This document shows, one piece after another, positions 53,965 through 56,555 of a stretch of DNA of 64,000 nt. The DNA is taken from the NCBI GenBank assembly GCA_964016885.1, contig OZ024740.1, positions 153,822,001-153,886,000 on the forward strand, given 5' to 3'. How positions within the stretch are numbered: position 1 is the stretch's first letter; each line of letters opens with the position of its first letter. Origin of the DNA: Eledone cirrhosa. Its lineage: Eukaryota. Position numbers and translations under genes: made by a program. The notes under the pieces are model-generated. The model was not told the origin of the DNA and searched no databases. It saw only the letters and a list, made by a program, of their open reading frames with translations.

Positions 53965-55475
53965 GAACCAAATAAATATATATATTTAAAAAAAAAAAAC
54001 TCCAGTTGCATTTTCGATTTCATCTTTTTCCTTATACTTTCACTCGTGAAGGACACCTCGGTTATTTTTCATTTTGTAAAAAAAACCTCACTTTCTAATA
54101 TATATATAAATATATATATATATATATTTATTAAAATAACAGATATTCGCTCTACGGTTCTTATATATTTGATATATATTTATCCTTATCGAGCCCTCTT
54201 TGGATTTTAGTCTTCAAATTTATTATTATTACTATATATATACACACACACACATATATATATATATATATATATATATATATATATATATATATATATA
54301 TATATACACACACACACCTGAAAATTTCTAAAGAATGAAACAGTTCTAGTCATGTAGAATCTCATCTATATTAAAACTTTTATACTCTGGTATGTATTGA
54401 GTACCTTACTTACTGTGGTTACCTCCGATTCAACCCGGAATAACTTACCCATATATATATATATATATATATATATATATATATATATATATATATATAT
54501 ATATATATATATATATAAAACGTTGGATAGAATGCTTTATGGTATTGGTTACGGCTCTCTGCTCTCTGAGTCCAAATCCCGCCGCGATCAACTTTGCTTT
54601 TCATCCTTTCGAGGTCGATAAAGAAAGTACCAGCGTAGTAATGGGGTCGATTCTTCCTCTATTGCATTTCCTCTCTCTCACTTTCTATCTTTTTCTGGAA
54701 GAAATATGCTGTACACTGGTTAGGGACGGGATGGCCTCTGCTAGGCTTAAATGGCCTTAAAAAGCCAAGAAACGACGTATATTAATACGGCGCCCCTAAG
54801 ACTCTATCAGTAGTTAAGGAAACAAACATACATACACACACACACACATATATATATATATATATATATATATATATATATATATATATATATATATATA
54901 TATATATATATATATATATATATATATATATATATATATTAAGTGTAAGGAATTCTTTTACAATGGAATTAGCTCGAAAGGAAATATTCCTGAGCCGTGT
55001 ATAAAAGTAATATATATGAGTAATATATATGTTGAAACAGATACCAACATATCTGTATTTATATGTATAAACATCATTGCCATTTGGCAGCACAACTAGT
55101 TTTTGTCGATTTATTATTATTATTATTTTAAATCGATGTGGACGAACTGTGGTATAATAATTAATATTCTTCAGTCTGGCTAACTTTCTTTTGCAATATA
55201 AATACAGATATGTTGGTATCTGTTTCAACATATATATTACTCATATATATTACTTTTATACACGGCTCAGGAATATTTCCTTTCGAGCTAATTCCATTGT
55301 AAAAGAATTCCTTACACTTAATATAACGGCTCTTCGTCGAGCTAAAATTCGCCTCATATATACGACTGTTATTTCTAGCAGTACGGTTATGAGACTAGCC
55401 TGAATCTGTGAACCCATGTGCGTCACACAGTCTTTTAAATTATTTAGAAGTGAAGCTTATCAATTGTCTCTGGAT

Positions 55476-55540
55476 GTTTACTGAGGAGAGCAGTGGCATG
55501 ATATTCCTACACTTATATCCATCTCGAAACATGTTTGGAT
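55476..55540 (+). ncRNA. Type I hammerhead motif, unit 1
   Basis: GUUUA-CUGAGGA-GAG..CUC-GAAA-CAUG-UU-UGGAU; stem I is wobble-rich. Confidence 0.65.
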
Positions 55541-56000
55541 TTTGAGGTTTAAACTTATCTACTGAACAGGTTTGACTTTGAAATTTAAATATGTATAAAC
55601 ATCATTGCCATTTGGCAGCACAACTAGTTTTTGTCGATTTATTATTATTATTATTTTAAATCGATGTGGACGAACTGTGGTATAATTAATATTCTTCAGT
55701 CTGGCTAACTTTCTTTTGCAATATAAATACAGATATGTTGGTATCTGTTTCAACATATATATTACTCATATATATTACTTTTATACACGGCTCAGGAATA
55801 TTTCCTTTCGAGCTAATTCCATTGTAAAAGAATTCCTTACACTTAATATAACGGCTCTTCGTCGAGCTAAAATTCGCCTCATATATACGACTGTTATTTC
55901 TAGCAGTACGGTTATGAGACTAGCCTGAATCTGTGAACCCATGTGCGTCACACAGTCTTTTAAATTATTTAGAAGTGAAGCTTATCAATTGTCTCTGGAT

Positions 56001-56065
56001 GTTTACTGAGGAGAGCAGTGGCATGATATTCCTACACTTATATCCATCTCGAAACATGTTTGGAT
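56001..56065 (+). ncRNA. Type I hammerhead motif, unit 2
   Basis: Identical to unit 1. Confidence 0.65.
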
Positions 56066-56555
56066 TTTGAGGTTTAAACTTATCTACTGAACAGGTTTGA
56101 CTTTGAAATTTAAATATGTATAAACATCATTGCCATTTGGCAGCACAACTAGTTTTTGTCGATTTATTATTATTATTATTTTAAATCGATGTGGACGAAC
56201 TGTGGTATAATAATTAATATTCTTCAGTCTGGCTAACTTTCTTTTATATATATATATATGTATATATATATATATATATGTATATATATATACATTATAC
56301 ATATATACATATATATCTCTATATATTTATGCACACACACACACACGCGCAAAAAGAAAAAGAAAACTACATGAGAAGCATATATATTGATTCTATCTAG
56401 GAAAATATTTTCCTAGCGTTTCCTCGGCTAGTAGACTTTTAACAAGGTCGTATCTTTAGCTAAATGAAGTTGGTTCTTGTTCTTGTTTTTATCATTTATA
56501 TTTTCATTTTATGTTCATATTTTATTTCCAGTCTTATCTATCTATCTATCTATCT

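Follow-up and report, generated by a model that had tools for sequence, protein, structure and literature searches.

Metazoan non-LTR retrozymes are non-coding, low-GC tandem repeats that carry one type I hammerhead ribozyme (HHR) per unit and are dispersed as monomers to multimers with a structured monomer (PMC7229834; bioRxiv 10.64898/2026.07.22.740005). Their link to Penelope-like elements (PLEs) is based on co-occurrence and phylogeny (bioRxiv 2026.07.22.740005). Insertions of PLEs themselves show a characteristic signature consisting of an inverted 5'-truncated copy, partial tandems and a tail at one end (PMC8557442). For a PLE of Anolis, it was found in vitro that two internal reverse transcription (RT) starts define the tail and that RNA 3' of the starts is required (PMC11167929). 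Circles as templates for more-than-unit cDNA were proposed in 2014 (PMC4209133). Two questions are treated as open in the accessible text of PMC8557442, PMC11167929 and bioRxiv 2026.07.22.740005: the means by which retrozymes are mobilised in animals, and the reason why insertions of PLEs form tandems that have inverted arms and a tail on one side only.

Here, we analyzed an HHR-bearing array in a 64-kb stretch of DNA, referred to as the window. The forward arm (55061-56245, plus strand, which is the strand of the HHR and of the inferred RNA template) comprises 2.25 head-to-tail units at 55061-55588 (528 bp), 55589-56113 (525 bp) and 56114-56245 (132 bp). In line with the initial annotation, which had described near-identical units of 525-528 bp without coding capacity, the sole difference between units is the loss of 3 nt from an ATA run in the second one, the longest ATG-initiated ORF across the repeated unit has 65 aa (minus strand), and an ORF for RT plus GIY-YIG is absent. 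The array is preceded by an inverted arm of 130 nt (54935-55064, minus strand), 100% complementary to 55196-55325 and to 55721-55850, and the two arms meet head-to-head (5'/5') at a 4-nt overlap, ATAT (55061-55064). The inverted arm had thus been recognized correctly as a cap, although its start lies at 54935 rather than 54939, 4 nt further left in the TA run. This left limit is the long (L) 3' end of the family described below. Both ends of the array lie in (TA)n, as had been noted before, with the target on the left at 54848-54939 and a degenerate run on the right at 56245-56330. A tail of 65 nt (55261-55325, plus strand; second copy 55786-55850) separates the short (S) end, after 55260, from the L end, after 55325. 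The right end of the array is atypical: it falls at a CTTTT (56241-56245, plus strand) located 65 nt upstream of the CTTTT found before the S end, and probably arose by a microhomology jump or a deletion. We rejected it as a third start site, given a single other genome match with no family arm behind it and no other family arm stopping there.

A core-plus-stem-II scan of both strands of the window returned exactly two HHR matches, at 55481 and 56006. The first type I motif (55478-55538, plus strand; predicted cut after 55535, with U17) has CTGAGGA at 55481, a 3-bp stem II, GAAA and a 1-bp stem III with a CATG loop; the second (56003-56063, plus strand) is predicted to be cut after 56060. Each full unit therefore holds one HHR with the palindrome AACATGTT, as originally reported, and the two predicted cuts would release the proposed unit-length product, in this case 525 nt (55536-56060). 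An Rfam search gave no HHR match at the gathering score nor at E<=10, so that the HHR call depends on the motif and its conservation within the family.

Searches of the 3.0-Gb animal assembly, whose repeat content is suggestive of a cephalopod, revealed 84 exact matches of a 22-nt HHR motif compared to none for the reversed control, which argues against a chance occurrence and disposes of the objection that the sequence might be confined to a single locus. A 23-nt tail motif allowing at most 1 mismatch was matched 397 times (control 0), and a motif just 3' of the HHR core, degenerate across subfamilies, 888 times (reversed control 0). The array is one of many dispersed copies and not an assembly duplication; it represents a young copy of a dispersed, non-coding repeat of about 528 bp with an HHR motif. 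Subfamily units measure 513-545 bp, which is above the 150-450 bp given in PMC7229834 and inside the 51-972 bp of bioRxiv 10.64898/2026.07.22.740005, and the subfamilies compared are 75-97% identical to each other. Like the retrozymes, the family is dispersed and low in GC, with a monomer predicted to be structured (z -4.0), and its ends are fixed TA junctions rather than LTRs. The 1-bp helix III with a palindromic tetraloop is shared with axolotl HHR_Amex1, whereas the weak, G-U-rich stem I, the long loop II and U17 set the HHR apart from those of metazoan non-LTR retrozymes. We consider it likely that the family is a non-LTR retrozyme that acts as a non-autonomous PLE. No description of it or of its duplicated hairpin was found in the literature searched (Repbase, Dfam, most subscription journals and supplements were outside the scope). 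The same AACATGTT palindrome also ends an HHR core with 724 genome matches (control 33), most of which come from a single abundant family (L098-L100) that is unrelated and whose stem II is short.

In order to describe the insertions, we numbered positions from q1 at window position 55326, using a natural 528-bp copy as the reference unit. Out of 72 mapped loci, 57 of the young type were kept, while 6 of an older type and 9 without a match at 90% identity were dropped; since the loci were chosen by exact motifs, the sample is skewed to intact copies. The 3' ends of the 94 arms in these 57 young-subfamily loci lie at q528 (L, 53 arms) or q463 (S, 36 arms), with 5 elsewhere, and the 3' flank is TA-rich in 87 of the 94. 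Two arms are present at 37 of the 57 loci, and 32 of these 37 combine an L with an S end; L+L and S+S combinations do not occur (0 each; p 2e-10 under independence). The 5' ends of the arms are scattered across the unit. The arms diverge from a variable 5' junction, overlapping there in 27 of 38 junction rows (BLAST), towards the fixed S and L sites 65 nt apart. Arms longer than one unit account for 37 of the 94 and retain exact RT-type ends. This family-wide anatomy agrees with the earlier view of a dispersed, non-coding, HHR-bearing retroelement inserted by reverse transcription into (TA)n. However, the array at 54935-56245 is not the clearest example it had been taken for: with an L end on the left and neither S nor L on the right, it is among the 5 of 37 two-armed loci without a long and short pair, and L058, with 7 full units, is a better one. 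A minor feature concerns the short ends of L064 (C1302) and L073 (2 of 36 S ends), where one or two additional copies of an 8-nt S-start motif stand in front of the TA run. This looks as if the RT had re-primed and is reminiscent of telomerase repeat addition.

Assembly duplication or a fold-back artefact at the TA repeat might also generate an inverted cap, TA and inverted repeats being hard to assemble, and none of the contigs compared from four public runs of one study spans the locus at 54941-56240. Such an artefact is nevertheless highly improbable, as the same architecture with two different fixed ends recurs at dozens of loci and in several subfamilies. TA-joined ends recur in the public-run contigs as well, with loose TA ends at 55260, 55324/5 and 55850, although this one study is possibly related to the assembly.

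Both fixed ends are followed, within a few bases on the 3' side, by the motif GCTC..GAGC, which is predicted to form hairpins. At our locus these are the GGCTC..GAGCT hairpins at 55264-55289 (plus strand, z -2.2), just 3' of the S end, and at 55328-55343 (plus strand, z -2.7; second copy 55853-55868), just 3' of the L end and already part of the next unit. Among 15 tandem junctions representing all subfamilies, every one (15 of 15) has the motif after both sites, bearing in mind that these junctions were collected using that motif. The GCTC/GAGC pairs are invariant in 14-15 of the 15, so that covariation is unable to confirm the hairpins. Older D-type copies provide an independent test of the motif, because the ends track the hairpins when the spacing changes: in D-type copies 81 nt separate the two hairpins, and 53 of the 70 TA-flanked ends occupy two sites with a spacing of 82 nt, located 4-5 nt before the GCTC..GAGC motifs. 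As the L hairpin lies in the next unit, outside an L-started cDNA, L ends would arise only from tandem or circular RNA if the hairpin is the binding site. This fits the requirement for RNA 3' of the start described in PMC11167929.

The paired long and short ends are those of PLEs, which suggests that the repeat is copied by a PLE enzyme. We regard the array as a young copy of an HHR repeat family with two 3' ends that was, with good probability, put into (TA)n by a PLE RT/GIY-YIG protein acting in trans. A dimeric PLE protein would bind the two GCTC..GAGC hairpins on one RNA and nick both strands of the TA repeat. One cDNA would then start just upstream of each hairpin, and the far ends of the two cDNAs would join by microhomology, producing head-to-head arms. 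A coding PLE of the same genome (775-aa RT plus GIY-YIG) likewise has head-to-head arms and TA targets, and its tail measures about 66 nt. The inverted cap is the mark of a PLE insertion and not of rolling; its initial interpretation as a rolling footprint does not stand, because this 5-kb coding element has the same cap, which consequently says nothing on rolling. Taken as a whole, the first interpretation of the array is partly supported.

The comparison with described PLEs points in the same direction. With EN+ PLEs (PMC8557442, PMC11167929, PMC4209133) the family has in common partial tandems, an inverted 5'-truncated copy at the 5' end, a one-sided tail, an HHR upstream of the RT starts and AT-rich or (TA)n targets. 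In contrast, it has no ORF, its tail is 65-82 nt instead of 30-40 nt long, and a duplicated hairpin motif lies 3' of both its start sites. Non-autonomous PLEs of the Chlamys type such as MRC1 (PMC8557442) also form multicopy head-to-tail insertions with pLTRs; however, they share 3' sequence with an autonomous family and belong to a clade without canonical HHRs, whereas the family studied here has an HHR and was matched to no partner. The coding PLE of the genome (L201-L212) resembles it in its head-to-head arms, ends about 66 nt apart, (TA)n targets and upstream HHR, but differs in a minimal U3-A8 HHR, in other hairpins and in the lack of significant sequence similarity to the unit. Head-to-head arms with fixed long and short ends, present here, are absent from the retrozyme accounts in the accessible text of PMC7229834 and bioRxiv 10.64898/2026.07.22.740005.

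We examined the HHR in an alignment of 18 representatives, which were gathered with a core pattern, so that the conservation of the core is inflated. N7 is the sole variable core position, G10.1-C11.1 is invariant and position 17 is U in 17 of the 18. The third pair of stem II is G-C in 10, U-A in 4, G-U in 1 and unpaired in 3 representatives; one compensated stem II pair and a free N7 are thus seen, but the HHR stems show no excess over shuffles (81/500). The proximal part of stem I is A-U or G-U, followed by U-G and U-G, in all 18, and the expectation that the family consensus would strengthen stem I was thus not borne out. A longer version of stem I that includes a 2-nt bulge (85% paired) was discarded as not above shuffles, and the missing closing pair of stem II, considered as a trait of subfamily B, proved private to L066. 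The palindrome occurs in 3 of the 18, all of the young type. Only the young palindrome gives a stable dimer helix III in the predictions (-7.2 kcal/mol), while older loops without it, at +0.4 and +1.8, form no stable dimer helix.

The HHR-constrained fold is predicted to exceed the minimum by 12 kcal/mol in the nascent RNA and by 24 kcal/mol once the downstream hairpin has formed; the HHR fold would therefore lose to a hairpin burying the cut site. This long, G-U-rich hairpin (55529-55594, plus strand, z -6.4; second copy 56054-56119) is predicted to span stem III, the cut site and the 3' strand of stem I. It is 96% paired across the representatives, with 7 one-sided changes and 1 two-sided change, and does not exceed its shuffle controls (161/500). 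In the fold predicted for the circle, the two sides of the cut are both paired within this hairpin, which could on that basis act as a splint for ligation and keep the circle silent. HHR motifs of this type usually show low activity in vitro (PMC4209133; bioRxiv 2026.07.22.740005), although amphibian motifs with a 1-bp helix III showed good dimer cleavage and formed circles (PMC7229834).

The template of the insertions exceeds unit length. Of the 89 arms that end at L or S, 50 extend beyond the cut position, the 888 copies found genome-wide carry the base upstream of it and 6 arms start at the cut, which excludes a cut linear monomer as the main template. Two templates are about evenly matched in our assessment. 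One is a circle that would arise by HHR cleavage and re-ligation and be copied by rolling, to which we assign slightly less than an even chance. The other, an uncut or partly cut linear multimer, would be produced by transcription of tandem donor loci and inserted by a PLE without any circle, the HHR being rarely active or dispensable; its chances, too, fall just short of even. The energy cost of the HHR-constrained fold (12-24 kcal/mol), U17 and a dimer helix III that is stable with the young palindrome alone all speak for the linear multimer. HHR mutants were without effect on insertion in PMC11167929, where the main substrate was unprocessed RNA, and cleavage failed in 8 of 9 dimers from Xenopus (bioRxiv 2026.07.22.740005). 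In addition, at one locus (L064/L114) both arms begin exactly at the predicted cut and the longer arm crosses the next HHR, as if copied from a partly cut multimer. A template of this kind does not readily account for the sub-subfamilies, which appear as unmixed arrays of up to 7 units, so that a step copying one unit repeatedly is needed for each new one. L arms would also be expected to shorten every generation, and in no sub-subfamily do two loci convincingly share a unit-private variant at one and the same position.

The distribution of variants within the arrays bears on the same question. At 7 diagnostic sites, 2 of 180 site-by-locus tests were mixed; variants within 30 nt of the 5' end of an arm were dropped, and this filter removed one mixed site (L039). 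Substitutions private to a locus are found on one copy only in 41 cases, on some copies in 2 and on all covering copies in 10. Six of the latter lie on tandem copies (4 loci) and 4 on opposite arms, where both the rolling and the linear model expect them, and these 4 do not discriminate. The 7 units of L058 differ by 4 singletons alone, with no variant in common. The homogeneity of the arrays, together with nearly all copies crossing the cut site, makes rolling plausible. However, homogeneous donors or conversion would give the same picture. The 5' ends were inspected for traces of cleavage as well: they coincide with the predicted cut (q211) at 5 loci (6 arms) of 11 pattern matches, compared to 4 of 8 at q210, 1 of 7 at q212, 2 of 10 at q213, 2 of 5 at q229 and 1 of 30 examined (57 matches) at q215, plus one starting at q211/212. 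The excess at the cut (p 0.04-0.09 for q211 alone; 0.02-0.03 with q210 pooled post hoc) is suggestive only.

Short insertions to which tandem units were added later at the DNA level, by unequal crossover or conversion as in a satellite, would likewise yield arrays, and assembly polishing may add to their homogeneity. We judge this origin unlikely for the family, since 37 of the 94 young arms exceed one unit and have exact RT-type ends, no variant is common to the L058 units, and the paired ends are left unexplained. It finds more room in the old array L074, where 13 full units were read and 39 substitutions are common to mostly non-adjacent units, and in L045 and L061, which share a variant in some units only; local amplification has been proposed in bioRxiv 2026.07.22.740005. 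L074 itself (C2:383792500-383800000) belongs to an older subfamily and resembles a satellite, with at least 15 units that are 92-97% identical. In its most detailed form, copying by rolling would involve a dimeric PLE RT on a circular 528-nt RNA with two hairpins 65 nt apart, which primes both nicked TA strands and rolls in two arms, while the conserved hairpin splints the HHR cut and blocks re-cutting. We put this complete scheme forward as a tentative and rather doubtful proposal.

We looked for the PLE that might mobilise the family among 10,596 GIY-YIG candidates, scoring 150 of them and fetching 20. Across 138 family loci, there was no junction with a PLE ORF that lacked an intervening TA run, and 30 PLE loci have no sequence in common with the unit except for nested insertions. 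Low-stringency BLAST of the units against the PLE loci gave AT-repeat noise alone among the matches listed. The neighbouring coding PLE was rejected as the partner: its tail alignment was reached by 1 of 2000 shuffles with the TA ends and by 352 of 2000 after trimming. A GIY-YIG match 3 kb from a family copy (L211) and the co-locations at L213, L215 and L226 were also dismissed, as they are nested insertions parted by TA runs or unrelated sequence. These last three correspond to 3 of 19 GIY-YIG loci that were fetched irrespective of the family and have a family copy within a few kb, above the expectation from genome density. Such co-location likely reflects common TA targets.

The value of these observations lies in the family rather than in the locus, as the pairing of ends and the duplicated hairpin make the mechanism testable. 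What the family contributes is an insertion anatomy in which long ends are strictly paired with short ones and both start sites are predicted by a short hairpin present in duplicate. With a substrate of 528 nt, start-site choice, twin priming and circular versus linear template could be addressed in one in vitro system. If the circular rolling reading is true, the genomic anatomy of the family would directly document that an animal retrozyme retrotransposes by rolling with twin priming. Since the concept of a circular template dates from 2014 (PMC4209133), a positive result would confirm a standing model.

The surroundings of the array contain further elements, and between 51.5 and 56.3 kb at least three PLE-type elements are nested in TA repeats. 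A decayed copy of the abundant coding PLE, whose intact relatives are L201-L212, occupies 51527-54100 (plus strand), with its long end at about 54100 and a minimal HHR with a U3-A8 core variant at about 53928-53965. First-look candidates for this element number 13,208, and a 775-aa RT plus GIY-YIG frame is present in many of them. From the Cys motif before the endonuclease, we presume its clade to be Neptune-like. An upstream ORF of 409 aa (L203:2015-3241, L209, L210) lies in another frame and overlaps the start of the RT frame; its ATG follows the long end by about 24 nt, and Pfam gave no match for it. The element may thus have two ORFs, a frameshift or an intron. At 54319-54452 (plus strand) we found a 3' fragment that belongs to a third family with an HHR (L288-L317; 994 first-look candidates), which has the same long and short ends and fold-back arms. 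Downstream of the array, an unbroken LINE frame of 1153 aa (56609-60070, plus strand) matches AP endonuclease, RT and zf-RVT, and fragments from 62403 onwards belong to a second, decayed LINE copy. Finally, five near-identical tRNA genes of 84 nt with a long variable arm, four of them on the minus strand, are located at 4403-11999; their anticodon, taken from the alignment, is CAG (Leu).
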